Below, piece by piece: positions 6,281-35,382 of a stretch of 64,000 bases of DNA. The DNA comes from Yuukianura sp. NJ FZ-2021 (taxonomy: Eukaryota), in NCBI GenBank assembly GCA_046563655.1, contig JAJCTO010000010.1, positions 1,054,001 through 1,118,000 of the forward strand, read 5' to 3'. The translations under genes were made by a program, and so were the position numbers. The notes under the pieces were generated by a model. The model had not been told where the DNA came from and did not search any database. It saw only the letters and a program-made list of their open reading frames with translations. The first letter of the stretch is position 1. Every line of letters begins with the position of its first letter.

Positions 6281-7163
<883 letters not shown>

Positions 7164-7980: not shown

Positions 7981-10900
7981 ATTACGATCCCTATAAGTAT
8001 CTGACGATACTTAATAAAGACAATGTCTGTTAACTTGTTTTGCAAACATATTTCAAGTATTTTTGATTCTGAAAGTGGTTGTTCTGACACTTGTGTATTT
8101 AGAACAAAAAATTTCATTGGAATTGTGCTATTTGGTGGTATTTCTGTTGGAATTCCCCATTCTTTTACTTGAAATATGTAATCAGTGATATCTGTTAAGT
8201 TACAGATGTCTTCGGCGAATTGTTGTTCATCGACTAGAATTTCTAAAGAATCGGTTTCAATAACGTCATCTTCCGAAATCAACCTCATCCGTTTAGTGTG
8301 TGTTTTAAAAATTCTTCCAGTTGTCATGCATTTAACTTCGTAAATGTCAGGACCAACTTTTTCTGTAATAATGTAACTTCCCCAATAGTAGGCTACCCAT
8401 TTTCTAGCCTGTCCTTTTTCACCTTGTCTTGGGTAAGTTAGACGTACAATGTCTCCTTTTGTGTAAAGTCTAGACATTCTGAATTTATTATTGACTTCTT
8501 GTGTTTTTTGTTGTTGATCAGATATTGCTGATCTGAGTTTTGACCATAAAGTTAGAATATTTTCTTGCTTAATGCGCAGATCTTTATTTTTAATTTCTTT
8601 ATGAAACGCATAAGGAAAATTTGGTTGTCGGTTAAATACCATTGAGAATGAAGAATGGTAATTTAAACTTTTCAAAGGCGTTGTGTTAATGCAAAAGTTA
8701 ATCATAGGAACAAATTCGGACCAATTAGAATGGTTATCGTTAACGTAATTTCGTATTATGCCATGCCAGATTTGATGTGTTCTTTCTGACAACGAATTTC
8801 CTGTGCTGTTATAATACATTGTATGTGTAATTTGCGTATCAAATATTTTTGAAAAAGATTTCAGAAATTCTGACGCATAGTTTGAACCATTGTCGACGTA
8901 GATGCGTTTTGGAGTTGAAAATTTTAAGAAAACTTCCTTTTCAAAAAAATCTGCGATATCTTCTGCTTTTGTAGTTTTTAAAGCTTTAAGTATGGTGTAC
9001 TTAGTCATTAAACATACACAGTTAATTATGTATTTGTAGCCATTGCTCGAGGGCATTGGTCCACAGATGTCGCTTGCACATACCTCCATTGGATAGTTTC
9101 CAATTGGAAGTTTTCCTGCTAAACCATGTATTTTTCCAAAATGACGTTTCATTCTGTTACATTCGTCACAACTTTGGATATGTTTAACTAAATCTTGTTT
9201 TTGAGATGGCCAAGCAAAAAGCCTTGATAACTTATTATAACATTTTGTATAGCCGCAATGACCAGATATTGGAACGTTATGTATTTCATGTAAAATATAT
9301 TTCCGTTGTTGTTGAGGAACAAAAATTCTCGAAAATCCGAGTCTCATGTCAAACACAATTCCATCTTTGACTACATACCTTGCTCGTGTATGAATATCAT
9401 TTTTAATCCAATTTGTTCTAATTTTGACACATTCTTGATCCACTAACTGTAACGCAGCCCAGTCTATTGTGTTATCAACGTTATACCATTTTGTAAGTGT
9501 CTCCGGATTTTTAATAATAAGTTCTTCTAACAAGATGAATTGGCTTTCTGGTATCTCAAGATCATTAGCTTCTTGTGTAAGAGGATCTCTACTTAACATG
9601 TCTGGAAGATCCATATTTTTGCCTTTTTATATTTGATTTCATAGTCAAAACCCATAAGGATTACAGACCATTTTATTAATTCATGGTTCCGGCGTTTTGA
9701 AGGAGATTTTTTGTTTGGACTAACGGTAGTGAATCCGTTATGATTGTAAATTGAATATCCATCAAATATAAATGAAAAACCGAACAACAAGTAACTATAG
9801 CAAATAATTCTCTCATGAATCCTGGATAATCTTTCTGCTTTCCTTTTAATAAAGATGAATGGTAAGCTATTGGAACTTCTAAGTTTTCATTCGTAGTTTG
9901 GAGCAATGCTCCACCTATACCGTAACCACTAGCGTCTGTATATAAGATTGTTGGTCTAGATTTGTCAAACCAATGTAATAATGGCGGTGATGTTAAAATT
10001 TCTTTGATTTTGTCGATTTGTTGTTCGTGGATTTTTTCTAACTTGAATGCTTTATCTTTCTTTAGAAGTTCGTACAAAGGTTGTGTGAGTAAAGAGAAGT
10101 TAGGTACACTTCTTCTAAACCAATTAAATGATCCTAATAATCTTTGAAGTTTCTTAACTGACGTTGGATATGAAATTTGTTGGACTGCTTTTAGTTTCTC
10201 TGGTTGTTGTCTAACTCCACTGGTACCTACCAGCATTCCCAATAGTGGTATTTCAGGATACCCGAAGTAGCATTTGTGAATGGCTAACTTAGCATTAGAT
10301 TCCCTTAATTTCAAAAAAGTTTTCCTAATATCTTCTAAATGATTTTGCCATGTTCTGCTCGCGAAAACTAAATCATCGATGTAAATAATGTTATTTACCA
10401 TTAATGTTTCTCCTAAAATCCAATGATAACAGCGAGTAAAACTCGCTGGGGCTGTGCTAATTCCAAACGGTAAGTAGGTGAACGCAAAATTCCCTTTTTG
10501 TGTGGAAAACGTTAAGTACTGAACACTATCTTCTGCCATCTTAATACTCCAAAATCCTCTTTGTACGTCACACATGCTGAAATAATTATGCCTATCTTGG
10601 ATCCAATCCAGGACAGCATCAACGCTAATCATAGTGTATTACACTGGTGCGATCATACTGTTAAGTTTTACGTAATTGATACAAAATCTAAAGGTTTTTT
10701 CTCCATTTGGTAAAGTGTGTCCGGGGACTAAGACGGTAGATGACACATAATTTGAATTACATGGGACTATACGACGTAATTTTAGTAACTCGTCAATTGT
10801 TTTGTTTTCGAATTCTGTCATAGCTGGCGTTCTTCTGGCTGGTTGGCTTCGAAATGTAGTTGCGTTAGGACGCAACACTACATGATGGACATAATTTTTA

Positions 10901-12149
10901 ATTTCTCCTATCTCTCTCTTATATGCGAAAACGTCTGTGAATGACTCTAATAATTGACGCAAGTCGTCTTGCTTACTTTTTTCTAAATCTGGATTGATTC
11001 TAGCTAGGATTCGATCCAAATGTTCTTTAAGTAAGTTCGAAGGTAAATCAGAAAGTTTAAAATTAGGAAGAGTTTCATCTATTTCTGAAGTTTGGTTGTG
11101 TTCTCCTTCAATTAACCCGATTGTGGTAATACGCTTTTCTATAAAACTGGGTGAGGGGACTTCTACCCAGCACTTCTCTGGTAAGGATTCAGAAAAGGTT
11201 TTATCGCCTTCTATAGCGTAAGTGCCTGCTACAAAGGGATCTTCACCTTCTGTAACGTAGGTGCCTGCTACAAAGGTGGCTCCCCGGGGATACTCTATAT
11301 CAACAGGTCTATACTGATCTGGAAGAGGGACCAGTGTATCAGCCAGACCAGCATATCCTATTGTTCCTTGATTACGATTCTCGATATGATTGTTGATATT
11401 TTTATTGATTTGAATGTGTGAGTTCAGATTTTTTACGTTACCTTCTTTGCTCCCCGTCGAGATTAAATGAGTAATCTCTGAGCTCACATAATCAACAATA
11501 TTTGAGTCTACATGGTCAATAGAACTTGATGAGTATAGACTTTGTTCAACGTTGTGTAGAATGACTGCGTCATTTTCTACTAAACTAAACACCTTGCAAT
11601 TAACTTTAATATTTTCTACTACTATTGGTATAATTTTAATTTCTCTTCCATTCCAATGAATTATTTGGCGTTTCAAGTCAATTAATATTTCCTGCTTAAC
11701 TAAAAAGTCGTTTCCTAATAGAGCTTCTAACGAAAAATTCTCTATTACCACCATCGTATGGTCAACTTCCTGATTGTGAAATTTGATTTTTACTTCTGAC
11801 ACTCCCAAAGACGAAATAGATGAATTTCCTATTCCTTTTAAAGTTACAATATCATTATTTTTCTCTATGTTTTCTAATTTTACCAGTTTACTATTCACGA
11901 CTGAACACCCTGAATCTAAAATAATGTTAATCTGAAAACCATTTACGTAGCCAACCACTCGAAGCAATCCATTCTTACCTATACTACATACTATACGATT
12001 ATTGCTAAATTTTTGAAAAATGTGAGTTTTTGGTTTTAGTGATTCTAGTGAGAAAGAATTTAGGATTGGAGAGTTTGAGTTTGGTAAGTCGTATTTGACG
12101 GGTTGGCTGGGGTTTAGTTCTCCTGATTGCGGCCCCGTGTTTGTTGTGT

Positions 12150-12192
12150 AGGATGGAAATTCGCCGCCACCGCCATCCCATCTTAGTTTTTT
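12150..12192 (-). promoter_or_regulatory. gag-pol -1 programmed ribosomal frameshift site
   Basis: A_AAA_AAC (12192-12186) lies in the gag frame just before the gag TAA; pol is open in the -1 frame; a downstream stem GGATGG...CCATCC follows. Confidence 0.75.
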
Positions 12193-13235
12193 GTTTGCAT
12201 TCGACATGTTCCATCGCCGTGGGCGCCCGTGCCGTGTAGGGAACACCATTGAGCGTCGATCCTACTGGATGGGTTACTGGATGAAGTTTGTAGGTTCTGA
12301 TTCTGTCGACGGCAATCCTGATTTGAATGTCCAGTTGTCTTATGCCAGGAACAAAATTGCTGCGGACTATATTCGGCCGTAGATGTTCTACAGTCCGCTT
12401 CAAAATGTCCCCTTTGATTACAAGATGTGCAAATATTATTTCTTGGACATTGTGCGCTGAAATGTCCCGGCATGGAACAAGTAAAGCAAACTCCATTATT
12501 GGAGTTTTGCGGTCTGAACGAGGTGTCCTGTCTGACCTCTCGTTGGCGTAGTGGTTTAGAGTAGCCACCAATTCTAGTGTTTACTCCAAATTGTTCTTAA
12601 GTTGTGTAGTCCGGATAGGTCGAAGTATATTGTTCGGTATTTTGAATTCTTCCAGCTGTTTTCTGAACTACCATTACTTCCATTTTATTCATTCTCTCTT
12701 GGATGTCATTCATGACGTCTTTTTGTTCGAAAAGCTCTGCAGTAGCTTGTGTCATAACATTGACATCCTTCTGATGTAATAACAGCTCATTGGTTTCTTC
12801 GATGCTCTTCATTGCCTTCAAAAATTCTGGAATTGTTTCTGGCTTTGTTGCTCCCAGAGCGCTGATGTTGGAAGGTCTTAAATTTCTAATAAGCCACCTA
12901 ACTTGGCGGGCTTCAGTGATATCTGGATCCATTTGACGAAGTAAATCCGTCAGTTCATACACATATGAAGTTGCTGATTCATTCAACATCTGTTTCCTGT
13001 TGATGACCTTTTGTTCGATGGCCATTGTGCTGGATTGTCCAAAGGCCTTGATGAGTTCTCTTTTAATTGTAGGATAACCGACCAATAGTGACTGGCCAGG
13101 TGGTTTGTTTGAATCCAAAAATGAAAAAAGCCAAGCTTCTGCAGTTCCCGTAAGAGAGGAACTCAGAATGATAGCCCATTCGGTTTGTGGAATTAAATTC
13201 CCAGTCATTGCGAATTGGAATTTAACGATGAATCG

Positions 13236-14250
13236 TGAAACGGGGTAATTCTTCGCATCTTTAAAATACTTGGAAAAGTACCTTTGTTTAATGAAAACTG
13301 TTGGTAGTTCTCTGAAAACTACCAATAGCCGAGGCCCCAAGGCCTCTGCGGGTCTAACACCCGCTTACCCCTCGTGACCTAACCCTTTGACCCTCCCGGG
13401 CCCTTAAGGAACTAATCTGAATGCCAGAGATCAAGAAGAGGATGAAGCCTAGCCTACCTAATCCACCTGTTTCTCCTGATTACCCGCCATTGACCCCAGG
13501 TGGGGCCTGGTCCCACCAGCCCCACCGCCAGTCCTAACTGCCTAAGATACTATAGAATAAGCCCAAACCTAGCTCTCTTAAACAACATAGTAATTGTTTT
13601 CAATTACCTCTTCAGCTACAGTTGGATTCTCGGTAGTTAGTGGACTCCAGCAAGAGCGAAGTTTAGATGCAACAACGGCAGAGAGTTGGATTTTTCAGAG
13701 TTTATTTCCCAAAAGAGAGTATAGCGCAACCTAACCTTTTGAAAGTAGATCCCAGAGAGATTTAGGAGAAAAGCTAATTTGAAAATGACTTAATTTTAAC
13801 AGAGTTCTCACTACTATTTATAACCTAGTTAGTAACCTACTCTGTCCTCTAATTCTAATTACCCTTGGCAACTTGTGTCCGCAATCGGACGTTAATGACC
13901 AGGATTTATAATCCTGTTTAGTCATTAATGTCCGATATCAGACAAAGTTGCGAGTGTATGCAAATTGACATCTCGTCAATTTGAATTAAAATCACTCGCT
14001 TATGGCATGACTTTACATGTCGAACAAGTGTAAAACTTGTTAAACAAGGTAGAATTGTCGCGTCGGCTTTCTCTGGCCTGTCAGATCAAAGATCATAACT
14101 CTTTGCAACTTTGTTGCAAAAGCGAGTTTTATCAATTTGCATACACGTTCATTTTACCCTTATCACTAATTACTCCTAATTAGAAATTCGTTCAGATTTT
14201 AACTTGTCCCGAAATACGAATTCCGGGAGAAGTCAAAATCCGACGTTACA
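13236..14250 (-). repeat. LTR of the nested element (~1015 bp)
   Basis: Minus strand begins TGTAACG and ends CGTTTCA; PPT immediately upstream; AATAAA near 13701-13706; internal hairpin at ~13869-13950. Confidence 0.72.
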
Positions 14251-15784
14251 ATATTCCCCAACTTGTCCTAATCTACGTCCTCGGAGATTTCCTAGCTAAT
14301 TGTGTGTGCATTGCATGTTAGGCTGAATAAAGTCTGTTCATTTGATGACATGAACTTGAAGCCTGAAGTGCTAAAAGTACTATAATAGCATATGTTAATA
14401 AATCCCAAACGTGGAAACTATACTTAAAAGAGACAACGTGTTCCGTTAAAGAATTGTTTAACTACAAAAGAATTCAGCTACTTCGTCGACTGTATAATGT
14501 CGTGGGGGTCCTATCTGTGGGTTACGCTGAACTGCATGAGGAGGCGGGGGAGGACTATTCCACACAGGGCGGTCATTCTCAAGGCGCTGCACACGTTCCT
14601 GTAGGTCAGCTACCTGTCGTAGTAGACCTTGTACCTGATTTTCTAGCGCCAAAATTCGTCCTTGTGAGTTTTCACCATCGGAAGTGAGAGCTGGCGACTG
14701 TACATGAGGCTGGCTTCTGCTTGAAAGAGGGGATGTTCGATCTCGTCGATGATTTCGAGAATCTGCATATCGTTGGCGCCTTTGCTCATGTGTTTGCGAC
14801 GGTGGCATCTGGACGGTCATCTCTGAACCACTTGATGCGGGAGTCACGTAACCTCGATCGTTGGAGTCATCGATTAAGTCATTCAATGGAGTCCACACAA
14901 TGACGTCTGATGTAGGCAGGAATGTTGACCTTGAGTTACGGGTGTACGGGGCCTGACCTCTATGTAGGATACGGAGTGCGTCGTTCAGGACTTGGTCCTT
15001 GCTCATCTTGGAACCGTATGGAAGTTCGGATTCGTATATTCTCCGTCTAAGTTGTCTGTCTATTACGGCTGCTGTATCAGCAATCCAGCTGAAATAAACT
15101 TCTTCGAATTGGTTAAGCGATTTGTCGAACCTTTGGGCAAGCAGCATAACTACGTCACGCACAAGTTTTTCGTGAGTCGTCTCAGCGATTATGTGAGGGC
15201 GGAATGATGGAAGTGGAATTGGTTGGACGAGAGTTTCATTTGTGAATTGGAATAATTTTCGTAATATAACTCCACATGTAGCCTGATGTTTTGCGCGAAT
15301 TTCAGCTGCGACTCCACTCCATAGGTGCATGATGGCGACAAGATGATTCCGTAAAAGTGGAAGATCATATTTGGAACTGTGATGGCAGACATGGCTAGGC
15401 GGGATGTCGTATGTAAACTGTCTGGAACCGAATGCAGTGAATTTGGTGCAGAGTGAGGAGAAGGATTGTTCTGGAACAATGCCGGTTCGGAAAAGTTTCT
15501 CCAAGTCCAAGGTGGCTACCGGAAAAATGTTTAGGTCTCGTCTCAGCATAATAGATTGTTTGGAACAGTCATACATGACTTTTGGAATTTCTGGGTTGTC
15601 CATTAAGTCTCGGAGCGCGGTGATAGCTTTCTCGGTCAATTGTCTGACATTGAGGACAAATCCTGATAGACAAGTCAGGATAAGGACTGTGATTGTTTCT
15701 CCAAAATATGTCTCCGTGTTTTCTCTGGCGCTGACAAATATCACGTCACGATAAGATGCATCACGAATAAGATCGAGTGCATAC
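13236..15784 (-). mobile_element. Nested 5'-truncated LTR retroelement fragment (ORF + PPT + single LTR)
   Basis: Flanked by the direct repeat AATCG (13231-13235 and 15785-15789); contains a PPT-like AAGTTGGGGAATAT followed by an LTR-like unit. Confidence 0.75.
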
Positions 15785-16143
15785 AATCGCATGACGTCTT
15801 CATTGGTTTTTCCACTAAACGTCGGAATTTTGATTTTATAATTGATTTTTTGTGTAGGGGGTCTAGACCCAGGGATCGGCATTGCGCCTGATTCATCGCT
15901 ATCTTCTTTCAAATGTTTTTTGGGATTTTCTCCAGGATAGTAAGGTTTGAATAGGTATTCCTCTGGATAATTTGGACTTGTAGAGATTGGTGGATAAATA
16001 GGAAGCGTGGTCCTATCTTTCTCAAAAACTTTAGCCAGTGGGCTAGGTCGTAGTATAATTGGAACCCCATTGTGTTTTTTATCAACATCACTGTCTAGTG
16101 TGTTGTCTATATCTTTCTGTTTACTTCTAGTATTCGTAGCCAT
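14458..16143 (-). CDS. Chimeric ORF: Gag N-terminus fused in frame to a DEDDy 3'-5' exonuclease-fold (EXD1/Egalitarian-like) domain with a coiled-coil/Pro-rich tail
   Basis: LRDLMDNPEIPKVMYDCSKQSIMLRRDLNIFPVATLDL resembles the L..LLE...I.KVIHDC....L......FDTQ block of EXD1/Egl. The ExoI position (VIFVSARE) lacks the D-x-E pair. C-terminal heptads ILALENQVQGLLRQVADLQERVQRLE. Confidence 0.55.
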   Translation of the reverse strand: MATNTRSKQKDIDNTLDSDVDKKHNGVPIILRPSPLAKVFEKDRTTLPIYPPISTSPNYPEEYLFKPYYPGENPKKHLKEDSDESGAMPIPGSRPPTQKINYKIKIPTFSGKTNEDVMRLYALDLIRDASYRDVIFVSARENTETYFGETITVLILTCLSGFVLNVRQLTEKAITALRDLMDNPEIPKVMYDCSKQSIMLRRDLNIFPVATLDLEKLFRTGIVPEQSFSSLCTKFTAFGSRQFTYDIPPSHVCHHSSKYDLPLLRNHLVAIMHLWSGVAAEIRAKHQATCGVILRKLFQFTNETLVQPIPLPSFRPHIIAETTHEKLVRDVVMLLAQRFDKSLNQFEEVYFSWIADTAAVIDRQLRRRIYESELPYGSKMSKDQVLNDALRILHRGQAPYTRNSRSTFLPTSDVIVWTPLNDLIDDSNDRGYVTPASSGSEMTVQMPPSQTHEQRRQRYADSRNHRRDRTSPLSSRSQPHVQSPALTSDGENSQGRILALENQVQGLLRQVADLQERVQRLENDRPVWNSPPPPPHAVQRNPQIGPPRHYTVDEVAEFFCS

Positions 16144-16924
16144 TTTAATTGACCAATAATTAAAAAAAAACTGTTCGTTAACAAGAATTAAAAAAAAAAA
16201 ATTCTTACCTTTAATTGACTTTCTCACGTAGATATGACTAGTGGTTCCTTTTGGTTAAAGTTGACAGCTATTTTTACCACTTGGGTTGAGAACTAAAAGC
16301 TCTCTTCTTCTCTGATCTAGATTCCGAAGGACCAACTCAAAGAAACTCGAAGTACCAATGTTGTAGTGTACTAATGTTTCCACTTAAGTTAGTTAAGTGG
16401 AAATTAACTAATTATTACGACTTGAAAAATTAAATTTTGGATCGACAGAAATTGTTAGCTGTAACCTATTAGCTTGGTAAATGTTGACTGACTTCCGATT
16501 TCTAAATTTGAATCGTATTTATCTGCTTTGATGATGCAATAGAGATACGTGGATTAACAACGCACTCCATCAACATGTTGACGATAATTTTGAAATCAGA
16601 AAAACATGTTGATGACAATCTGACCTTAAGGTCAATACCTATAAATAAAAGCTTTCTGTGTCATTCCGAGCTATTAGGGAATTTTAACTAAAATGCCAGA
16701 TGTTTGTTTATCAAAACATGTTGACGATTTTTGAGAATTTTTTAGTAAACATGTTGTTGTCAACCTAACCTTACGGTCAATGTTTTTTTAAAAAATCTAA
16801 AATCTTACTGCGTCATTCTACATTATTGTAAGGTTTTAACTAAGCTACCAGATGTTTGTTTGTTTTAAGTTGGTTGTTGTTTTAACCCTGAGTTCAACCT
16901 TTAGTAGAGTATTACATAAGCTTC

Positions 16925-17097
16925 CTCCATAAGGATTTACTGCGGTTTGAGGGTCGCATTAGAAGACATTGTGCATAAATATACGCCATAAGGATTTGCT
17001 GCGGGTTGTAGGTCCCATAAGGAAACATAGTACATAAATAAGTGTCATAAGGATTTGATGCGGGTTGTAGGTCCCATAAGGAAACATAATGCATAAA
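16925..17097. repeat. ~60-bp tandem repeat (about 3 copies) in the retrotransposon leader
   Basis: cataaggattt..tgcgggttgtaggtcccataaggaaacata..cataaata repeated. Confidence 0.85.
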
Positions 17098-18517
17098 TAC
17101 AAAATTTTCCGCATGTCATAATCAGACTTTTGCTTTACCTATATTTCTTATATTTCATTTTTTGCTGTTTCGAGATGTTAATTTATGGATTACTAGACTT
17201 GCGGAAAATTTTTTAAGTAGAAGGAAAAGTTAAAATTGGGAAAATTTTCAGGAACCAATAAAATCATTAAATAATACATAAAACCAATTAATTTTTTAAT
17301 TTTTTATCTTCAATCTATAATTAGATATTGATACTTTATAATTTAGAACGTTTTTAAATTAAAGAAATAATTCTCATTCGGGGAGTTTTGAACTGATTAC
17401 TTTGCCACTCCATCGTTATATGCCCAACACTTTGCTGCGCCGAACCACATTAAAGCCTAACAAATTCTACCCTGCCACATCTAGAAACCTAATGTATTTG
17501 AACCACTATATTTGTCAGTCTGTTTCCCTTTTGTGATAAGGTTCAAAAAATAAAATTGTTTTTCACTTTTTGAAATTGAATGCGTACTAGAAACGTATTT
17601 TCATGAAAGAAATAGTGAGATCATATCATGATCTCCTCATTTTTGTCCACAACATATTGACTAACTTTTGGTCAACAACATGTTTACTAACTTTTTCGAA
17701 CAACATGTTTACTATCTTTTTTGAACAACATGTTTACTCGACTTTTGGTCTTGATGTTTATGTTTACAACAAAATTACATAATCATTTTGCGCAGTTTCT
17801 GAGGTTTATTTGAAAATTGCGAAATCATTTTATCTAATCGTTCCAAAGGATTGCGAAATTTGGCCTGATCAACAGATGACGCTGCTTTTAACATTTATGC
17901 TTAAAAATTACGTTTATCATTTCTGCCCATTCCAGAGTATTACTGGACAGGATTCTATACTAAATCATGTGTTTTTGTCAATATGTTATCGATGAAAAAT
18001 ATTTTTATTGCTAAATCTTAAGAAAATTTAATTTTATGAGAGTTAGAGACGGTGTTATACTTTGTTAAACTGGTTCCAACCCCCTCGAAAAAATCGTTCT
18101 CGCTACTTGAGTAATGCGATTGTTCAGTAATGGGAAATCTCACCGCTCAAAGCACAAAAACATGTTACTATCAATTTGACCTTTGGGTCATGATAATTTT
18201 AATTATTGTTGATGACCATTCACATATGGATGTCCAAAAGTTTATTTTGTCAACATGTTTTTGTAATTGACCTTTTGGGCCTATCCCAATGTCTGTTTTC
18301 GCTTCCATTGCGCCTTAGGATTCTGATGTCGCATTTACAGGCTAAAATTTGTTGTTTTTGATTTGAAAATTCAAAGTCAAGAAAATTATAAGTTTTTCAT
18401 CTCTCGCAACGTGAAAATTTGAACAATGGAGATAAGCTAACTAACGTTTCTTGACTTTAAAATTTTGTGATTAATTGAATTCAATTTAAACAATTTATTG
18501 CAAACTCTTTTCTACAG

Positions 18518-20502
18518 AACTATCCGTGGCCCAAAGATATTTACGTCCATGAATTTACTGGAGCCCGAATTGTGAATCCCTCAATGTTCTTAAGAGAAAT
18601 TCGGCGGCTACACCAGCGTCAAATTTCCGACCATGGTGGTTTTGTTATTCGTCTTGGGAAAAAAATGGATATTGATGATCAAAAACTTAAATCTGCCTTG
18701 GATATGGCAAGCGGGAAATCTATTGTATACGAATTCAAGAAACAGCGGAACGTTCCATTTCCTGTGCGTAACTTCGTAAAGAAGTGTTGCGACAGTCGAA
18801 CCGGACACGAAATTAAAAGTGCAGTGTACGTTTCACAGCATATTTTAAAAATTTAAATTTAAATAAATTGGGATATAAGTATTAAAATTCCTGTTTTCCT
18901 TGTTTCAGAAATACTGACTTTGTTTGGAATCGGAGGAGCTTGGACAAATTTTTTGAGGGTATCTTTGGGAAAACAAAGCCGTATCAGGAAATGAAGAGGA
19001 TGACAATTGCGTCGAATGAGCGTGGTGTCCTCAATCTGAACGACTTTAAGGATGCTCTATTTTATTGGAAGCAAGGAGATAATTTCAAGACGGATTCTAA
19101 CCGAAAGGTGAGTGTCTATGTGCTAATGTTTCCCAAAAAAAAATTCTGAGGCGTTGATGTTTAAAATTATTTTGAAACTGTATTACAGCGTGGAATAAGA
19201 GGTGTTACAGATGTTGCCATGTATTGGAGTGAACCATTTACTGGGACTGGGTTTCACCCCGAGGTTTGTTAATGTATAGAGAAAATTTCGTAATTATTCT
19301 GATGAAGTCTCTACTTTCGTTTTCTTTTTAAAGGACTGTAATTTTTGCGGAGGTAATTTAATGTTATATGGGGGCTCTAAACTCTGGATTATTTTGAACC
19401 CGGAAAATTCAAAAAAGTTGCTGAAAATACTGAAAAAGCTGTTCAACATTGACTGTGATGGCATTTTCAAGACCAAAAGTTTTATGATTCCTCCCTCATT
19501 ACTACACCAATTGGGCATTCATTATCAGATTTTTATTCAACGCCCTGGAGATTTAGTGGTAACTACCTCCGGATCTGCACATATGGTGCTCAATATGGAT
19601 TTCAGTGTTAGTAAGTGGCGGACAAATTGCGAGTGTTCACTTTTCAATGACAATCATTCTCCATTTAATATATATTTTACGTAAGCTTTTCTTTTCTAAT
19701 TGATTTTTGCAGATGAAAGCGTAAATTTTATTGATCATGACGATCTTCATCAAATTTATAAGGCTGAGAAACGCCTATGTCGATGCGGCTTTGTGGGCCA
19801 CGAACCTCCCCTTGATGTTCAGAAAGAGAGGGAAAACAACCCTTATTTTCTTAAGTAAATTTTCATGTCACTATATCCTACAGCGTTTTTGAATTTAAAT
19901 CCAATCGTTTTATTTTCAATTGGTTAATTATTTTGCTAGGCATGGCCAAGACTTATTCCAATTATTCAATATATCTACAATCGTGTCTGATTTCCTTGAC
20001 CTATTCAAAACTGTACCAGTTGGAAGTGAAAAAGCGCCATTTTATGGGACAATTGATGGCGTTATCTACTCTTTTCCCACCTCAGCTGTCTCTAATGTTG
20101 TACCAACTTCTAGCGCATCGGCTCGTACCCTTTCTGAAGGTATTGTTTTTCCAATTATCTGCTAATAAACCTACAACTCTGTTTTTAATAGATCGAGAGC
20201 CACAACCACATCATAGTCGATCATGCCAATCGATGCTTTTGCCAAATACTGACGGCATTTCAATTTCTGAGCCTTCATCTCACACAGCGGGATTATCTCA
20301 CACGGAGAAATCTGCATTTGGAGCAAGTTTAAATAAATCCTACGTTTGCTCGCAGTGTGGTATGATGTTTAAAACTAAGCAAAATAGATGGACTCATAAT
20401 AAGAACGTTCACATGGGTCAACAATATGAATGCGTTAAATGTAAGGCAACCTTTAAATCGAGTTGGAATCCGCCATCCGCGAAATTGTCTTTGAATTTTT
20501 AG
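18518..20502 (+). CDS. Spliced JmjN/JmjC-domain protein (KDM4/JMJD2-like histone lysine demethylase) with C-terminal C2H2 zinc fingers; start exon not identified
   Basis: Exons 18518-18825, 18909-19107, 19189-19263, 19334-19610, 19713-19854, 19940-20139, 20192-20502; six GT-AG introns, all phase-compatible. The joined protein has GIRGVTDVAMYW..FTGTGFHPEDCNFCGGNLMLYGGSKLW...QRPGDLVVTTSGSAHMVLNMDFSVNESVNF...LCRC, then YVCSQCGMMFKTKQNRWTHNKNVH. AATAAA at 20556-20561. Confidence 0.88.
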
Positions 20503-20780
20503 ACGCAACAAATTTTTTGGCTTAAACAAAGTAACTATTAAATTGCTGATTATGAAATAAAATGTTTGTTATGCTTTCATATTTGTTTTTCGCTTCAATA
20601 TTAATTAAATTTAAACAATTGAATTTTCCGATTAAATTTATTCATAAGACTCTACTATGTGTAACTGAAGGTGTAATGACTCAAGATTATTAAACAAAAA
20701 TGTTCCATACCTTGAAGTTTCCTTATGAGGCTGACCAGAAGAGTCAAATGATCCTCTAATCGTTACCAGAATGATGGCCA

Positions 20781-21080
20781 GGAGGATTTCTGGAGGATTA
20801 CCATGAGGATTACCATGAGGATTACCGGAGGATTACCAGGAGGATTACCGGAGGATTACCAGGAGGATTACCATGAGGATTACCGTGAGGATTACTATGA
20901 GGATTACCGGAGGATTACCGGAGGATTACCAGGAGGATTACCATGAGGATTACCGGAGGATTACCAGGAGGATTACTATGAGGATTACCGTGAGGATTAC
21001 TATGAGGATTACCAGAGGATTACCGGAGGATTACCAGGAGGATTACCATGAGGATTACCGTGAGGATTACCAGGATTACC
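20781..21080. repeat. 12-bp minisatellite (GAGGATTACCNN)n, ~25 copies
   Basis: gaggattaccat/gaggattaccgg/gaggattaccag/gaggattactat in tandem. Confidence 0.95.
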
Positions 21081-21507
21081 CTGGTGTTGGCAGTAGATAT
21101 GAGAAACCTGCTCGCGCTATTGTTCACTATTCATTATAATTTTTGTTAAAAGTTAATGTCCCTAGAAAAACGCTATTGTTTTAAATTTGTTTTCATTCTT
21201 GCTAAATGCTATCTTTCCTAAAAATGCCATTTTTTTTTAATTATTTTCTAATATGACATTTTGTTTATAGTTTTAATTGATTAATTTTTTTCAAATACTT
21301 CTAGTGGAAACATTAGTACAATTGGTTTTGAGTATTCATGTAAGTTGCTTAGCTTACAAGTTGTATTGACTGTAGTTATAGTTTTTATTGGTGCATGATT
21401 TAGAAAACTATAAATTCTCTATTGTACTTCATTGGTATTAAAAAAAATTTAGCTTTACTTACCTTATTGTAGCTTCTGACAATGGTTCTCAAGTAGCGAA
21501 GAAGGAA

Positions 21508-21525
21508 TCCGGTTCGTAAGGGCCA
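21508..21525 (-). promoter_or_regulatory. Primer binding site (tRNA-Tyr-like, imperfect)
   Basis: Minus strand TGGCCCTTACGAACCGGA, 3 nt after the CA end of the 5' LTR. Confidence 0.7.
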
Positions 21526-21528
21526 AAT

Positions 21529-22379
21529 TGTTAGTCTACTCCGCGGCTAACATTCGGTCTAGGTAAGTCCTGAGTGGTGACTTACCTGAAAGCTGGTGGT
21601 TCTTTCCTTCTGTCCCCGAAGCCTGTCTGCCACCGAAGTAGCCGATGGCTCTGAGGTGCTACGGTAGGTGAGAGCTCGACTGTGTAGATGTTATTATGGA
21701 CTGTTCTGTACAACGGAGCGGTAATTTGTTGAAACAATAGAAAGGATGACTGACCATCTACCAAGAGACTAAGCTCTCTGGCCAGAAAAGGGAATAAAGT
21801 TCACTGAACACAATAGCTTTGGTTGAGTAACTACTGTTTATTGTTAGTTGAAACACCCTACTCCAAGTGGAGACTTCACCGTGTTATTGTTCTAGAGTCG
21901 GAGTTCCGCACAACGGAACTCCGACCCTTCAGGACTCTCAGTCTACTCTTATTGTTATAAGAACATTATTGTCCCTAGGGCTAACTATTGTTCAGTCTGA
22001 TTAAGACTGGCTAATCACTAAACTAGACTTAACTAACTAAGGGCTAACCCCTTCAGTCTGACTGACTGTTAATGACTCCCCCAACTAAAGTGAATGCAGG
22101 CTACTTTAAGGTTAAAGGATGACGCAGGTACTCACAAGAGTATTCGCCATTGGCTTAGCTAAGTCCACGTGTGTCCACGTGTTAAAACTATGTTACTGCC
22201 ACGTAAGTTATTGTGTCTTAGAATTATGATTCATGCACCCCTGCTAAGGTTAGATAACTGCGACTTAGAATTACGAGGTTATGAGTTCAGATTACTGCGA
22301 CTTAACATACTACGTCTTATAGTTATGAGTCATGTGCGCCGAGCAAAGTGAGTGGGATGACCCTGTCATAACGCTCACA
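21529..22379 (-). repeat. 5' LTR of the Gypsy element
   Basis: 851-bp direct repeat of 3690-4540, adjacent to the PBS. Confidence 0.95.
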
Positions 22380-25300
22380 GCATGCCTTCACTTTAGATGC
22401 AAACCATGAGTTCTCATATTGACACCATGAATCATGATGACTCACACTTCGATGGAACTTCAGGGAAAAACCGACTATTACATTTTCTAAATCAAAATTG
22501 AACATTCAGCATTTTTGGCCATTTTTGCATAGAATTTTTGGAAAATTCTTTTTTATATTTCCTACCGACTTGCACATTAATTAGATCATGTCTGAAAACT
22601 TCTGCCCAACAAAAGTCCGAAATTGTATTTTAGCACAGCTCCACCATACCACAAGTGCATAAGTCTAACTACGATTTAGGTTTAACTTAGGGTTGAAACT
22701 ATGCAACAAGGTGTTAAACGTTGTGAAAAATGGAATTTATGCGTTTTTACCGCTTATACAAAAATTCTTGGTATTCATCAAATAACGGTCCACTTTGTTG
22801 TAGTGCATAACTGACTAAATCACACGTTGAAAAACATGTTGTAAGCCTCCATTCTTGAGCTTAAACTAGAAGTGCCGGTGAAGTGTCAAGCATGCCTTCA
22901 CTTTAGATGCAAACGATGAGTTCTCATATTGACACCATGAATCATGACAACTCACACTTCAATCGAACTTCAGGGAAAAACCGACTATTACATTTTCTAA
23001 ATCAAAATTGAACATTCAGCATTTTTGGAGATTTCTGAATAGAAATTTTGGAAAATACTTTTTTATATTTCCTACCGCCTTGCACATTAATTAGATCATT
23101 TCTGAAAACTTCTGCCCAACAATAGTCCGAAATTGTATTTTAGCACAGCTCCACCATACCACAAGTGCATAAGTCTAACTACGATTTAGGTTTAACTTAG
23201 GGTTGAAACTATACAACAAGGTGTCAAACGTTGTGAAAAATGGAATTTATGCCTTGTTACCGCTCATACCAAAATTCTTGGTATTCATCAAATAACGGTC
23301 CACTTCGTCGTAGTGCATAACTGACTAAATCACACGTTGAAAAACATGTTGTCAGCCTCCATTCTTGAGCTTAAACTAGAAGTGCCGGTGAAGTGTCAAG
23401 CATGCCTTCACTTCACATGCAAACCATGAGTTCTCACTTTGACACCATGAATCATGATAACTCACACGTCGATGGAACTTCAGGGAAAAACCGACTATTA
23501 CATTTTCTAAATCAAAATTGAACATTCAGCATTTTTGGAGATTTCTGAATAGAAATTTTGGAAAATACTTTTTTATATTTCCTACCGACTAGCACATTAA
23601 ATACATCATGTCTGAAAACTTCTGCCCAACAATAGTCTGAAATTGTTATTTAGCAAAGCATCACCATACCACAAGTGCATAAGTCTAACTACGATTTAGG
23701 TTTAACTTAGGGTTGAAACTATGCAACAAGGTGTTAAACGTTGTGAAAAATGGAATTTATGCGTTTTTACCGCTTATACAAAAATTCTTGGTATTCATCA
23801 AATAACGGTCCACTTTGTTGTAGTGCATAACTGACTAAATCACACGTTGAAAAACATGTTGTCAGCCTCCATTCTTGAGCTTAAACTAGAAGTGCCGGTG
23901 AAGTGTCAAGCATGCCTTCACTTTAGATGCAAACGATGAGTTCTCATTTTGACACCATGAATCATGACAACTCACACTTCAATCGAACTTCAGGGAAAAA
24001 CCGACTATTACATTTTCTAAATCAAAATTGAACATTCGGCATTTTTGGCCATTTTTCCATGAAATTTTTGGAAAATACTTTTTTATATTTCCTACCGCCT
24101 TGCACATTAATTAGATCATTTCTGAAAACTTCTGCCCAACAATAGTCCGAAATTGTATTTTAGCACAGCTCCACCATACCACAAGTGCATAAGTCTAACT
24201 ACGATTTAGGTTTAACTTAGGGTTGAAACTATACAACAAGGTGTCAAACGTTGTGAAAAATGGAATTTATGCCTTGTTACCGCTCATACCAAAATTCTTG
24301 GTATTCATCAAATAACGGTCCACTTCGTCGTAGTGCATAACTGACTAAATCACACGTTGAAAAACATGTTGTCAGCCTCCATTCTTGAGCTTAAACTAGA
24401 AGTGCCGGTGAAGTGTCAAGCATGCCTTCACTTCACATGCAAACCATGAGTTCTCACTTTGACACCATGAATCATGATAACTCACACGTCGATGGAACTT
24501 CAGGGAAAAACCGACTATTACATTTTCTAAATCAAAATTGAACATTCAGCATTTTTGGAGATTTCTGAATAGAAATTTTGGAAAATACTTTTTTATATTT
24601 CCTACCGACTAGCACATTAAATACATCATGTCTGAAAACTTCTGCCCAACAATAGTCTGAAATTGTTATTTAGCAAAGCATCACCATACCACAAGTGCAT
24701 AAGTCTAACTACGATTTAGGTTTAACTTAGGGTTGAAACTATGCAACAAGGTGTTAAACGTTGTGAAAAATGGAATTTATGCGTTTTTACCGCTTATACA
24801 AAAATTCTTGGTATTCATCAAATAACGGTCCACTTTGTTGTAGTGCATAACTGACTAAATCACACGTTGAAAAACATGTTGTCAGCCTCCATTCTTGAGC
24901 TTAAACTAGAAGTGCCGGTGAAGTGTCAAGCATGACTTCACTTTAGATGCAAACGATGAGTTCTCATTTTGACACCATGAATCATGACAACTCACACTTC
25001 AATCGAACTTCAGGGAAAAACCGACTATTACATTTTCTAAATCAAAATTGAACATTCGGCATTTTTGGCCATTTTTCCATGAAATTTTTGGAAAATACTT
25101 TTTTATATTTCCTACCGCCTTGCACATTAATTAGATCATTTCTGAAAACTTCTGCCCAACAATAGTCCGAAATTGTATTTTAGCACAGCTCCACCATACC
25201 ACAAGTGCATAAGTCTAACTACGATTTAGGTTTAACTTAGGGTTGAAACTATACAACAAGGTGTCAAACGTTGTGAAAAATGGAATTTATGCCTTGTTAC

Positions 25301-28300
25301 CGCTCATACCAAAATTCTTGGTATTCATCAAATAACGGTCCACTTCGTCGTAGTGCATAACTGACTAAATCACACGTTGAAAAACATGTTGTCAGCCTCC
25401 ATTCTTGAGCTTAAACTAGAAGTGCCGGTGAAGTGTCAAGCATGCCTTCACTTTAGATGCAAACGATGAGTTCTCATTTTGACACCATGAATCATGACAA
25501 CTCACACTTCAATCGAACTTCAGGGAAAAACCGACTATTACATTTTCTAAATCAAAATTGAACATTCGGCATTTTTGGCCATTTTTCCATGAAATTTTTG
25601 GAAAATACTTTTTTATATTTCCTACCGCCTTGCACATTAATTAGATCATTTCTGAAAACTTCTGCCCAACAATAGTCCGAAATTGTATTTTAGCACAGCT
25701 CCACCATACCACAAGTGCATAAGTCTAACTACGATTTAGGTTTAACTTAGGGTTGAAACTATACAACAAGGTGTCAAACGTTGTGAAAAATGGAATTTAT
25801 GCGTTTTTACCGCTTATACAAAAATTCTTGGTATTCATCAAATAACGGTCCACTTTGTTGTAGTGCATAACTGACTAAATCACACGTTGAAAAACATGTT
25901 GTCAGCCTCCATTCTTGAGCTTAAACTAGAAGTGCCGGTGAAGTGTCAAGCATGCCTTCACTTTAGATGCAAACGATGAGTTCTCATTTTGACACCATGA
26001 ATCATGACAACTCACACTTCAATCGAACTTCAGGGAAAAACCGACTATTACATTTTCTAAATCAAAATTGAACATTCGGCATTTTTGGCCATTTTTCCAT
26101 GAAATTTTTGGAAAATACTTTTTTATATTTCCTACCGCCTTGCACATTAATTAGATCATTTCTGAAAACTTCTGCCCAACAATAGTCCGAAATTGTATTT
26201 TAGCACAGCTCCGCCATACCACAAGTGCATAAGTCTAACTACGATTTAGGTTTAACTTAGGGTTGAAACTATACAACAAGGTGTCAAACGTTGTGAAAAA
26301 TGGAATTTATGCCTTGTTACCGCTCATACCAAAATTCTTGGTATTCATCAAATAACGGTCCACTTCGTCGTAGTGCATAACTGACTAAATCACACGTTGA
26401 AAAACATGTTGTCAGCCTCCATTCTTGAGCTTAAACTAGAAGTGCCGGTGAAGTGTCAAGCATGCCTTCACTTTAGATGCAAACGATGAGTTCTCATTTT
26501 GACACCATGAATCATGACAACTCACACTTCAATCGAACTTCAGGGAAAAACCGACTATTACATTTTCTAAATCAAAATTGAACATTCGGCATTTTTGGCC
26601 ATTTTTCCATGAAATTTTTGGAAAATACTTTTTTATATTTCCTACCGCCTTGCACATTAATTAGATCATTTCTGAAAACTTCTGCCCAACAATAGTCCGA
26701 AATTGTATTTTAGCACAGCTCCACCATACCACAAGTGCATAAGTCTAACTACGATTTAGGTTTAACTTAGGGTTGAAACTATACAACAAGGTGTCAAACG
26801 TTGTGAAAAATGGAATTTATGCCTTGTTACCGCTCATACCAAAATTCTTGGTATTCATCAAATAACGGTCCACTTCGTCGTAGTGCATAACTGACTAAAT
26901 CACACGTTGAAAAACATGTTGTCAGCCTCCATTCTTGAGCTTAAACTAGAAGTGCCGGTGAAGTGTCAAGCATGCCTTCACTTCACATGCAAACCATGAG
27001 TTCTCACTTTGACACCATGAATCATGATAACTCACACGTCGATGGAACTTCAGGGAAAAACCGACTATTACATTTTCTAAATCAAAATTGAACATTCAGC
27101 ATTTTTGGAGATTTCTGAATAGAAATTTTGGAAAATACTTTTTTATATTTCCTACCGACTAGCACATTAAATACATCATGTCTGAAAACTTCTGCCCAAC
27201 AATAGTCTGAAATTGTTATTTAGCAAAGCATCACCATACCACAAGTGCATAAGTCTAACTACGATTTAGGTTTAACTTAGGGTTGAAACTATACAACAAG
27301 GTGTTAAACGTTGTGAAAAATGGAATTTATGCCTTGTTACCGATCATACCAAAATTCTTGGTATTCATCAAATAACGGTCCACTTCGTCGTAGTGCATAA
27401 CTGACTAAATCACACGTTGAAAAACATGTTGTCAGCCTCCATTCTTGAGCTTAAACTAGAAGTGCCGGTGAAGTGTCAAGCATGCCTTCACTTCACATGC
27501 AAACCATGAGTTCTCACTTTGACACCATGAATCATGATAACTCACACGTCGATGGAACTTCAGGGAAAAACCGACTATTACATTTTCTAAATCAAAATTG
27601 AACATTCAGCATTTTTGGCCATTTTTGGATAGAATTTTTGGAAAGTACTTTTTTATATTTCATACCGCCTTGCACATTAAATAGATCATGTCTGAAAACT
27701 TCTGACAAACAAAAGTCCGAAATTGTATTTTAGCACAGCTCCACCATACCACAAGTGCATAAGTCTAACTACGATTTAGGTTAAACTTAGGGTTGAAACT
27801 ATACAACAAGGTGTTAAACGTTGTGAAAAATGGAATTTATGCGTTTTTACCGCTTATACAAAAATTCTTGGTATTCATCAAATAACGGTCCACTTTGTTG
27901 TAGTGCATAACTGACTAAATCACACGTTGAAAAACATGTTGTCAGCCTCCATCCTTGAGCTTAAACTAGAAGTGCCGGTGAAGTGTCAAGCATGCCTTCA
28001 CTTTAGATGCAAACCATGAGTTCTCATATTGACACCATGAATCATGACAACTCACACTTCAATCGAACTTCAGGGAAAAACCGACTATTACATTTTCTAA
28101 ATCAAAATTGAACATTCGGCATTTTTGGCCATTTTTCCATGAAATTTTTGGAAAATACTTTTTTATATTTCCTACCGACTAGCACATTAAATACATCATG
28201 TCTGAAAACTTCTGCCCAACAATAGTCTGAAATTGTTATTTAGCAAAGCATCACCATACCACAAGTGCATAAGTCTAACTACGATTTAGGTTTAACTTAG

Positions 28301-31207
28301 GGTTGAAACTATGCAACAAGGTGTTAAACGTTGTGAAAAATGGAATTTATGCGTTTTTACCGCTTATACAAAAATTCTTGGTATTCATCAAATAACGGTC
28401 CACTTTGTTGTAGTGCATAACTGACTAAATCACACGTTGAAAAACATGTTGTCAGCCTCCATTCTTGAGCTTAAACTAGAAGTGCCGGTGAAGTGTCAAG
28501 CATGACTTCACTTTAGATGCAAACGATGAGTTCTCATTTTGACACCATGAATCATGACAACTCACACTTCAATCGAACTTCAGGGAAAAACCGACTATTA
28601 CATTTTCTAAATCAAAATTGAACATTCGGCATTTTTGGCCATTTTTCCATGAAATTTTTGGAAAATACTTTTTTATATTTCCTACCGCCTTGCACATTAA
28701 TTAGATCATTTCTGAAAACTTCTGCCCAACAATAGTCCGAAATTGTATTTTAGCACAGCTCCACCATACCACAAGTGCATAAGTCTAACTACGATTTAGG
28801 TTTAACTTAGGGTTGAAACTATACAACAAGGTGTCAAACGTTGTGAAAAATGGAATTTATGCCTTGTTACCGCTCATACCAAAATTCTTGGTATTCATCA
28901 AATAACGGTCCACTTCGTCGTAGTGCATAACTGACTAAATCACACGTTGAAAAACATGTTGTCAGCCTCCATTCTTTAGCTTAAACTAGAAGTGCCGGTG
29001 AAGTGTCAAGCATGCCTTCACTTTAGATGCAAACGATGAGTTCTCATTTTGACACCATGAATCATGACAACTCACACTTCAATCGAACTTCAGGGAAAAA
29101 CCGACTATTACATTTTCTAAATCAAAATTGAACATTCGGCATTTTTGGCCATTTTTCCATGAAATTTTTGGAAAATACTTTTTTATATTTCCTACCGCCT
29201 TGCACATTAATTAGATCATTTCTGAAAACTTCTGCCCAACAATAGTCCGAAATTGTATTTTAGCACAGCTCCACCATACCACAAGTGCATAAGTCTAACT
29301 ACGATTTAGGTTTAACTTAGGGTTGAAACTATACAACAAGGTGTCAAACGTTGTGAAAAATGGAATTTATGCCTTGTTACCGCTCATACCAAAATTCTTG
29401 GTATTCATCAAATAACGGTCCACTTCGTCGTAGTGCATAACTGACTAAATCACACGTTGAAAAACATGTTGTCAGCCTCCATTCTTGAGCTTAAACTAGA
29501 AGTGCCGGTGAAGTGTCAAGCATGCCTTCACTTCACATGCAAACCATGAGTTCTCACTTTGACACCATGAATCATGATAACTCACACGTCGATGGAACTT
29601 CAGGGAAAAACCGACTATTACATTTTCTAAATCAAAATTGAACATTCAGCATTTTTGGAGATTTCTGAATAGAAATTTTGGAAAATACTTTTTTATATTT
29701 CCTACCGACTAGCACATTAAATACATCATGTCTGAAAACTTCTGCCCAACAATAGTCTGAAATTGTTATTTAGCAAAGCATCACCATACCACAAGTGCAT
29801 AAGTCTAACTACGATTTAGGTTTAACTTAGGGTTGAAACTATACAACAAGGTGTTAAACGTTGTGAAAAATGGAATTTATGCCTTGTTACCGCTCATACC
29901 AAAATTCTTGGTATTCATCAAATAACGGTCCACTTCGTCGTAGTGCATAACTGACTAAATCACACGTTGAAAAACATGTTGTCAGCCTCCATCCTTGAGC
30001 TTAAACTAGAAGTGCCGGTGAAGTGTCAAGCATGCCTTCACTTCAGATGCAAACCATGAGTTCTCACTTTGACACCATGAATCATGGTAACTCACACGTC
30101 GATGGAACTTCAGGGAAAAACCGACTATTACATTTTCTAAATCAAAATTGAACATTCAGCATTTTTGGCCATTTTTGGATAAAATTTTTCAAAAATACTT
30201 TTTTATATTTCCTACCGCCTTGCACATTAAATAGATCATGTCTGAAAACTTCTGCCCAACAATAGTCCGAAATTGTATTTTAGCACAGCTCCACCATACC
30301 ACATGTGCATAAGTCTAACTACGATTTAGGTTAAACTTAGGGTTGAAACTATACAACAAGGTGTTAAACGCTCTGAAAAATGGAATTTATGTCTTGTTAC
30401 CGCTCATACCAAAATTCTTGGTATGTACCAAATAACGGTCCACTTCGTCGTAGTGCATAACTGACTAAATCACACGTTGAAAAACATGTTGTCAGCCTCC
30501 ATTCTTGAGCTTAAACTAGAAGTGCCGGTGAAGTGTCAAGCATGCCTTCACTTTAGATCAAACCATGAGTTCTCATATTGACACCATGAATCATGACAAC
30601 TCACACTTCAATCGAACTTCAGGGAAAAACCGACTATTACATTTTCTAAATCAAAATTGAACATTCGGCATTTTTGGCCATTTTTGGATGAAATTGTTGG
30701 AAAATACTTTTTTATATTTCCTACCGCCTTGCACATTAATTAGATCATGTCTGAAAACTTCTGCCCAACAATAGTCCGAAATTGTATTTTAGCACAGCTC
30801 CACCATACCACAAGTGCATAAGTCTAACTACGATTTAGGTTTTACTTAGGGTTGAAACTATACAACAAGGTGTCAAACGTTGTGAAAAATGGAATTTATG
30901 CCTTGTTACCGCTCATACCAAAATTCTTGGTATTCATCAAATAACGGTCCACTTCGTCGTAGTGCATAACTGACTAAATCACACGTTGAAAAACATGTTG
31001 TCAGCCTCCATCCTTGAGCTTAAACTAGAAGTGCCGGTGAAGTGTCAAGCATGCCTTCACTTTAGATGCAAACGATGAGTTCTAATTTTGACACCATGAA
31101 TCATGACAACTCACACTTCAATCGAACTTCAGGGAAAAACCGACTATTACATTTTCTAAATCAAAATTGAACATTCAGCATTTTTGGCCATTTTTGGATG
31201 AAATTTA
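22380..31207. repeat. Satellite A continued (~17 monomers of 510 bp, local 1020-bp dimer pattern)
   Basis: Same monomer as 1-3689. Variants (ttgttg/tcgtcg; ggagatttctgaat/ggccatttttccat) alternate with a 1020-bp period at ~22.8-25.3 kb. Confidence 0.97.
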
Positions 31208-35350: not shown

Positions 35351-35382
35351 CTTTAACCAGTACACATGCAGGGAGGAGAAAA

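Follow-up and report, generated by a model that had tools for sequence, protein, structure and literature searches.

Rph1/Gis1 of yeast and REF6/ELF6 of plants are JmjC demethylases with C-terminal C2H2 zinc fingers, and both Rph1 and REF6 carry a clear JmjN domain. Among transposons, the protein VANC, which is not known to be an oxygenase, is generally present across the copies of its transposon family. According to two reports, VANC of the Arabidopsis VANDAL transposons recognises short repeats in the noncoding DNA of its own transposon and reverses silencing (PMC5735166, PMC10398659). Orchid Ty3/Gypsy elements contain an open reading frame (ORF) for an AlkB-type 2-oxoglutarate dioxygenase that is fixed in the element lineage and acts on m6A in RNA (PMC9289625). 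No description of a transposon-borne JmjC gene was found in the limited collection of literature that was searched. This work concerns an intron-containing, KDM4-like JmjC gene that lies antisense within a long terminal repeat (LTR) retrotransposon of Yuukianura sp. NJ FZ-2021 (assembly GCA_046563655.1, contig JAJCTO010000010.1, positions 1,054,001 to 1,118,000 of the forward strand). This stretch of 64,000 nucleotides, referred to here as the window, is almost wholly repeat sequence, and all coordinates below are counted from its first position.

The likeness to the orchid elements is that an LTR retrotransposon holds an extra ORF of the Fe(II)/2-oxoglutarate oxygenase superfamily; the difference is that the gene in the window is antisense, intron-containing, KDM4-like and apparently present in one copy only. 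VANC resembles the mode of action put forward in an earlier reading of this locus (the original prediction), namely that the retrotransposon encodes its own, possibly sequence-targeted eraser of heterochromatin marks, and JmjC-finger genes also adjoin private tandem arrays. It differs in that the JmjC gene is apparently private to one retrotransposon copy. The explanation that we consider probable is that a gene of a KDM4/Rph1-like family sits on a secondarily inserted segment and is the decaying passenger of one retrotransposon copy. The segment spans 4.9-5.0 kb and comprises, besides the gene, some 2 kb upstream of it and a minisatellite on its 3' side. As a secondary event at the level of DNA, it would have entered the 5' leader of a single copy of a Ty3/gypsy element that is itself multi-copy. 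The gene would then be a passenger of this single copy and not equipment of the retrotransposon family.

The JmjC-C2H2 gene and its predicted protein

The gene is located on the plus strand and comprises seven exons (18518-20502) separated by six GT-AG introns of 52-102 nt. Its spliced sequence of 1512 nt consists of 503 codons and a stop codon, with no internal stop, which confirms the antisense single open frame of seven exons and six introns inside the LTR element that had been predicted. The exons are listed here together with their conservation in eight related loci from metagenomes (L001-L008), which are treated below.

18518-18825, plus strand: exon 1 (YPW...), which follows the acceptor ttctacag and has no ATG at its start; kept in L002, L004 and L008
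18909-19107, plus strand: exon 2, kept in seven of the eight related loci at E<1
19189-19263, plus strand: exon 3, with the Fe(II)-ligand motif H-x-E at its end, which is found in all eight related loci
19334-19610, plus strand: exon 4, which holds the JmjC core with its N, K, Zn Cys and distal His, identified by Pfam and by alignment with KDM4C
19713-19854, plus strand: exon 5 (ESVNF ... CRC), placed by the spliced product
19940-20139, plus strand: exon 6 (HGQDLF ...), with the HGQ motif kept in L001, L002, L003 and L005
20192-20502, plus strand: exon 7, with one full C2H2 finger and a second finger without an in-frame His pair, followed by the stop codon
20555-20560, plus strand: AATAAA, resembling a polyadenylation signal, 53 nt past the stop codon (by reading)

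Splicing at junctions 3/4 and 4/5 brings the product into collinearity with uninterrupted JmjC proteins, and all motifs that had been quoted for it (FHPED, GGNL..GSKLW, GSAHMV, ESVNF, CRC and the Thr in place of the Zn-site His) are present. The exon-4 ORF matches the Pfam family JmjC (PF02373) with an E-value of 2.5e-17 and 63.8 bits against a cut-off of 24. KDM4C, KDM4D, KDM4A and KDM4B are the nearest solved structures (E 1.2e-05 to 3.4e-04), followed by Rph1 (E 0.0096) and, more weakly, by KDM6 and rice JMJ703, among 47 distinct sequences at E<=1. An Atlas search with exon 4 again returned JmjC and nothing further. The distal His and the 2-oxoglutarate residues N and K align with those of KDM4C, and the H-P-E of the product aligns with H-x-E in seven of eight JmjC proteins, the eighth of which (P0010) begins past this motif. 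In full, the alignment of the product displays H-x-E-D, N, K, the distal His, E-x-x-N and C-x-C. At the Zn site, the three Cys are kept and the His is replaced by Thr; this position is Ser or Thr in the four nearest relatives and His in more distant ones. The proposed KDM4-like catalytic core is thus borne out by the Pfam match, the ranking of the solved structures and the aligned catalytic residues.

Exons 1 and 2 match no Pfam family at E<=5, and a profile of four exon-1 sequences gave no match in the PDB at E<=10, so that a JmjN domain was not recovered. Exon 5 alone likewise yielded no PDB match. The first finger has the spacing C-x2-C-x12-H-x4-H and matches Pfam zf-C2H2 at 1.5e-4 with 22.5 bits, under the cut-off of 25.2. 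Of the predicted architecture of JmjC and C-terminal C2H2 fingers, the JmjC domain and one full, sub-cut-off finger are therefore found, while the second finger is broken.

The product shares the JmjC core with KDM4A-D, including the aligned H-x-E...H, N, K, Zn-site Cys and C-x-C, but lacks a detectable JmjN domain, has Thr for the Zn-site His, and carries a C2H2 finger in place of the PHD and Tudor domains. The domain order, JmjC followed by C-terminal C2H2 fingers, is that of Rph1/Gis1 and REF6/ELF6. In comparison with Rph1 and REF6, the window copy has one full finger and its relatives have two. These data support the assignment of the gene to KDM4-like JmjC proteins with a C-terminal C2H2 finger. 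Given their conserved catalytic residues, intact members of the family most probably act as KDM4-type Fe(II)/2-oxoglutarate lysine demethylases, which would be targeted to DNA by their C2H2 fingers as in Rph1.

Host retrotransposon, probable inserted segment and contig depth

The element that contains the gene measures 18,690 bp (3690-22379) and is set within a satellite with a unit of 510 bp. Its features and those of the inserted segment are as follows (RT, reverse transcriptase; PBS, primer-binding site).

1-3689 and 22380-31206, strand not applicable: 510-bp satellite array on both sides of the LTR element, with monomers 94-97% identical by self-BLAST
3685-3689 and 22380-22384: target-site duplication GCATG (5 bp), flanking the LTR element
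3690-4540, minus strand: 3' LTR (element orientation), 851 nt, with TG..CA ends
7683-9626, minus strand: integrase ORF (Pfam Integrase_H2C2 and rve, 9.7e-15 and 7.9e-08), in a frame that differs from that of RT/RNase H
9676-10638, minus strand: RT and RNase H ORF of Ty3/gypsy type (Pfam RVT_1 5.2e-17, RT_RNaseH_2 1.5e-25)
10639-12261, minus strand: N-terminal pol ORF, with weak aspartyl protease matches (Pfam gag-asp_proteas, E 0.005, under the cut-off)
12597-13364, minus strand: gag ORF (Pfam Retrotrans_gag 1.2e-05), with an in-frame stop beyond which the frame runs on to 12186
14458-16254, minus strand: ORF598 (598 codons, first Met at 16146, from the ORF listing), upstream of gag and between the gene cassette and gag
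16367-16384, plus strand: left arm of a perfect 18-nt inverted repeat
16377-16403, strand not applicable: local hairpin with an 11-bp stem
16404-21302 or 16367-21320, plus strand: discrete inserted segment with the gene, bounded by a split palindrome in the first case and by the 18-nt repeats as termini in the second; placed by repeats, hairpin and depth steps
20763-21075, strand not applicable: minisatellite of 26.8 copies of a 12-nt unit at the 3' end of the inserted segment
21303-21320, minus strand: right arm of the 18-nt inverted repeat, partner of 16367-16384
21529-22379, minus strand: 5' LTR (element orientation), followed on the minus strand by a PBS-like stretch starting with TGG

The two LTRs of 851 nt each differ at 19 positions without indels. 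Rejoining the flanks of the element yields a sequence with counterparts in at least 21 intact satellite monomers, from which it differs by 2-4 mismatches in 30 nt, and the whole LTR unit therefore entered the satellite in a single event. The LTR pair, the GCATG duplication and the rejoined monomer flanks together confirm the predicted insertion of an LTR retrotransposon in satellite DNA. The PBS, which is putative, and the polypurine tract were read by eye. The RT is Ty3/gypsy-like, its 115 homologues being at best 32-36% identical, and the host element is a Ty3/gypsy retrotransposon on account of its paired TG..CA LTRs, its target duplication and its order of gag, protease, RT, RNase H and integrase. 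An in-frame stop splits the RT/RNase H ORF from the upstream pol ORF, and gag-pol of the window copy carries at least three lesions (the stops at 12597 and 10639 and the frame change between RNase H and integrase). The gene cassette had been placed between the PBS and gag; it does lie inside the leader, but ORF598 intervenes before gag.

Both ends of the gene-bearing segment are marked in the leader. The 18-nt inverted repeat has only two matches in the 64-kb window, a number reached in none of 100 shuffles. Its left arm runs into the local hairpin (z -2.79; one of 200 shuffles folds as well), the 3' half of which, AGTGGAAA (16396-16403), recurs as the opening 8 nt of the right arm (21303-21310) and thus forms an 8-nt direct repeat. 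The simplest reading is that a 47-nt palindrome of the leader was divided by an insertion of 4899 nt (16404-21302) with duplication of 8 nt. Alternatively, the 18-nt repeats may be the termini of the inserted DNA. Under both readings the segment is discrete, and without it the leader, counted from the PBS side as far as the initial Met of ORF598, would measure about 430 nt.

If the second boundary reading holds, the segment 16367-21320 could be a non-autonomous DNA transposon that has 18-nt terminal inverted repeats, carries the JmjC-finger gene as cargo and is nested in the retrotransposon. Some DNA transposons have subterminal repeats. Besides the perfect inverted repeat at its ends, the segment contains a third near-copy of the terminal motif in intron 2 (19119-19133, matching 14 of the first 15 nt of the 18-nt repeat), as subterminal repeats would. 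The 18-nt ends are not accompanied by a target-site duplication, however, no transposase is present, no second copy appears in the sequencing runs at 80% likeness or above, the terminal motif is absent from all eight related loci, and the hairpin at the left arm is better accounted for by the split palindrome. We therefore hold a DNA transposon to be distinctly improbable. With regard to the possibility, raised with the original prediction, that the cassette is a separate nested element with its own termini, a bounded segment was indeed found, with neither a transposase nor a duplication adjoining its 18-nt repeats.

The occurrence of the cassette was followed through contig depth, which is neither a copy number nor a ranking, in the only three DNA runs, all of one sample, that contain the stretch, at a likeness of at least 80% (depths are given for X1 and X2). 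Among the contigs listed, those that cover the cassette are all exact matches (records 7, 8, 14 and 15, with no other letters) at depths of 16.8-19.2 in X1 and 17.5-26.9 in X2, the level of the exact pol contigs that are specific to the window copy (20-21.1 in X1 and 26.9-31.1 in X2). In X1, the cassette bins (17826-20861) total 16-48; the pol, gag and ORF598 bins, which draw diverged contigs too, total 75-330, and the LTR bins 640-914, the diverged contigs listed being records 1, 5, 10 and 12. Depth changes stepwise from bin 15802-16307 to bin 16308-16813 and again from bin 20862-21367 to bin 21368-21873, and the two boundaries of the segment lie in bins at these steps. No second cassette copy was detected in the runs at 80% likeness or above, and within the rest of the window and the satellites the cassette shares only a motif of 11-13 nt. 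Because the cassette is covered at the depth of the window copy while gag, pol and the LTRs draw many diverged contigs, we infer that other copies of the element family are probably without it. Contig depth in one sample thus speaks against the expectation that other copies of the LTR family would hold the cassette at the same place.

These results bear directly on the proposal that the LTR family carries the antisense JmjC-finger gene as an anti-silencing module, which would erase H3K9me3/H3K36me3 at the family's own copies, be under selection and spread by retrotransposition with its introns protected. The gene does lie wholly within the LTR pair of a single insertion event, its frame is open with intact catalytic residues, and orchid Gypsy elements, whose AlkB domain is active (PMC9289625), offer a precedent for an LTR element that has fixed a 2-oxoglutarate oxygenase ORF. 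We nevertheless regard such a module as very unlikely. The cassette is found at the depth of the window copy only, whereas the remainder of the element is multi-copy; the boundaries of the segment are discrete; the relatives of the gene, by the ORFs compared, lie outside retrotransposons; and the open frame is not significant, with a missing start exon and a broken second finger (see below). Moreover, with at least three gag-pol lesions the window copy is no active master. The single-copy depth and the bounded segment thus leave the claim that the element encodes its own anti-silencing eraser without support. The accompanying argument that introns survive reverse transcription through the antisense orientation is sound in principle, but becomes moot if the cassette was never reverse-transcribed.

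Related loci, apparent decay and upstream repeat arrays

A HMMER search of exon 4 against 1.84 billion representatives returned 194 matches at E<=1e-3. The closest of these are unnamed single-exon metagenome ORFs (45-57% identical), and the best match that has a name is a JmjC protein from a fungus, with about 40% identity over 92 residues. A word-index search of exon 4 against longer proteins scored none of its 63 candidates. A scan of metagenome contigs gave 81 pattern matches, eight of which were confirmed as related loci (L001-L008). With the spliced product as tblastn query, the same exons with the same breaks were found in all eight (best E 5e-39 to 1e-13). Two C-terminal C2H2 fingers are present in L001, L002 and L005, and L002 and L008 possess an extra first exon (exon 0) consisting of an ATG and 31 codons ending in STW before GTGAGT. 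L004, L006 and L008 are damaged.

None of the eight related loci contains retrotransposon genes detectable by tblastn with eight ORFs of the window element at E<=0.01, and Pfam comparison of 12 of the 22 ORFs of at least 110 aa at these loci revealed no retrotransposon domains. It follows that the JmjC-C2H2 family is not bound to retrotransposons. With a protein identity of 43-59% to the nearest relatives, synonymous sites are presumably saturated. The gene belongs to an unannotated eukaryotic KDM4/Rph1-like family, characterised by a JmjC core, C-terminal C2H2 fingers, a shared multi-exon structure and a tandem array upstream. At L002, the relative is divergently oriented to a 483-aa ORF (L002 1682-3130, minus strand) with a weak F-box-like match (E 0.0024), which bears no similarity to an F-box ORF elsewhere in the window (E 1.5). 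The representative library also contains a predicted protein of 1604 aa (P0001) with 15 tandem copies of the JmjC segment; it scored highest through repetition alone (25% identity) and appears to be either a tandem duplication or an artefact of assembly.

The original prediction had also held that the cassette stayed open while gag-pol decayed. When neutral change was simulated at half the LTR divergence, 36% of 5000 trials preserved the frame together with all 24 splice-site bases, and 13% did so at the full LTR divergence. The openness of the cassette is thus not significant (P about 0.36), the lesion density of the gene is no lower than that of gag-pol, and there is no evidence of selection on the window copy of the gene. 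A convincing start exon was not found in 16404-18517, either by tblastn with exon 0 of L002 and L008 or among all phase-0 ATG..GT candidates; two weak look-alikes were seen by eye at 17420-17521 and 18130-18186. In the second finger the His pair is lost in frame, and a three-frame reading locates a His-bearing continuation in another frame. Lacking any recognisable start exon, and with its second finger broken, the window copy looks like a gene in early decay, and the contrast drawn with gag-pol does not hold.

Several points weigh against a decaying passenger on a secondarily inserted segment. No significant terminal inverted repeat exists at 16404/21302 (score 18, equalled in 35% of 500 shuffles), the 18-nt repeats, if taken as ends, have no target duplication beside them, and the segment contains no transposase and is itself single-copy. 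The near-copy of the 18-nt repeat in intron 2 is not explained by a split palindrome. A joint that skips the cassette was not present among the 15 joints listed of 84, nor was a cassette-free leader seen; the palindrome would break short-word contigs at this site, which may explain the lack of such a joint. The sample behind the depth data is possibly the assembly's own source. Finally, the frame of 503 codons is open, the 12 splice-site dinucleotides are canonical and no catalytic residue is lost, so that the gene may still be functional: if the host trans-splices, the acceptor of exon 1 could take a leader and Met codon 23 could start translation.

The sequence upstream of the gene is rich in repeats, which share a palindrome with the surrounding satellite.

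16572-18259, strand not applicable: cluster of nine AACATGTT palindromes, including an array of 4.2 copies of a 25-nt unit (17641-17747)
16927-17099, strand not applicable: array of 2.9 copies of a 59-nt unit, upstream of the gene

AACATGTT occurs at 36 sites in the 64-kb window, against 3.4 expected. Nine sites lie upstream of the gene, one lies in each of 25 satellite monomers and two are located elsewhere; the core common to the upstream arrays and the 510-bp satellite extends to 11-13 nt. This match was spotted post hoc and may be a coincidence. The satellite site (3628-3635; one per 510-bp monomer) is situated about 55 nt from the insertion point of the retrotransposon. Tandem arrays are also found at L002, L004 and L008, the three relatives with a located 5' end: each has 10-14 units, the unit is unique to the locus, and the arrays stop 20-45 nt short of the ATG or of the site where it would be expected.

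Taken together with the intact frame, splice sites and catalytic residues, and with a single copy at unique-sequence depth, the palindromes upstream and in the monomers and the private arrays before the ATG of three relatives would also suit a functional single-copy host gene in heterochromatin, a JmjC-C2H2 paralogue whose finger is directed to the palindrome in its own arrays and in the satellite monomers. The missing start exon and the truncated second finger argue against such a gene, the binding of the finger to AACATGTT is purely putative and the motif match is a post hoc one; we judge this alternative to be unlikely. The same repeats, in the arrays and in the satellite, and the private promoter arrays of the relatives keep alive a modified form of the anti-silencing idea. 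JmjC-C2H2 genes with private upstream arrays would then be self-contained, occasionally mobile modules for sequence-targeted heterochromatin erasers, and thus an animal or protist counterpart of VANC. The finger would read its own array, and as the palindromic core AAACATGTT also occurs once per 510-bp monomer, the protein could open the surrounding satellite chromatin. We would give this idea very little credence at present, and a passenger gene in decay remains the explanation that we prefer.

Neighbouring elements and significance of the locus

Within the host retrotransposon, ORF598 has a weak likeness to 3'-5' exonucleases (Pfam DNA_pol_A_exo1, E 0.013, under the cut-off; an Atlas score of 0.80 to Exd1-like clusters, which is a lead only). 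A word-index search with the 562 aa from its first Met scored none of 8000 candidates, and the single-sequence structure prediction, with a mean pLDDT of 37, is too poor for use. The depth over ORF598 (about 200 in X1) is that of a multi-copy sequence, unlike the depth over the JmjC cassette. Contigs of both X1 and X2 join position 13230 to position 15785, skipping 2554 nt, with 5 letters common at the joint; by frame arithmetic, this joint would fuse gag in frame to the beginning of ORF598. Some forms of the element family therefore lack most of ORF598, whereas others keep it. Within the skipped stretch, bins 13272-14283 are very high-copy (1237-2206 in X1). Between the integrase ORF and the 3' LTR, a block of nested inverted and direct repeats is found (6275-7162). 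The adjoining 1 kb (7200-8211) reaches a depth of 22,000-62,000 in X1 and X2 and is therefore part of a very abundant repeat.

Downstream of the 510-bp array, the window contains another satellite, built of 253-bp units (31233-33807 and from 51408 to about 59900), into which a Maverick/Polinton-like element (33737-51461) is inserted. The latter has inverted terminal repeats of about 1.4 kb (33737-35118 versus 51461-50055) with 97.6% identity. One of its ORFs (35868-39710) codes for 1280 aa and combines an Endonuclease_7 domain with a type-B DNA polymerase domain. A weak AAA ATPase match follows at 39784-40506, and two further ORFs, both on the minus strand, encode an rve integrase (41019-41981) and an F-box protein (48070-49629). 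Adjoining the 253-bp satellite, two neighbouring DUF1759 ORFs (59934-62459) are present, as in the gag of BEL/Pao-type retrotransposons.

A histone demethylase that truly belonged to a retrotransposon family would represent a novel type of counter-defence by transposons. What was found favours a one-off nested insertion instead, which is an ordinary event. The interest of the locus lies in an unannotated KDM4-like JmjC and C2H2 family with conserved exons, whose nearest relatives are unnamed metagenome ORFs, in the private tandem arrays at the promoters of family members, and in the recurrence of one member's repeat core in the surrounding satellite. As a lead only, these observations may indicate how sequence-targeted demethylases might relate to satellite heterochromatin.

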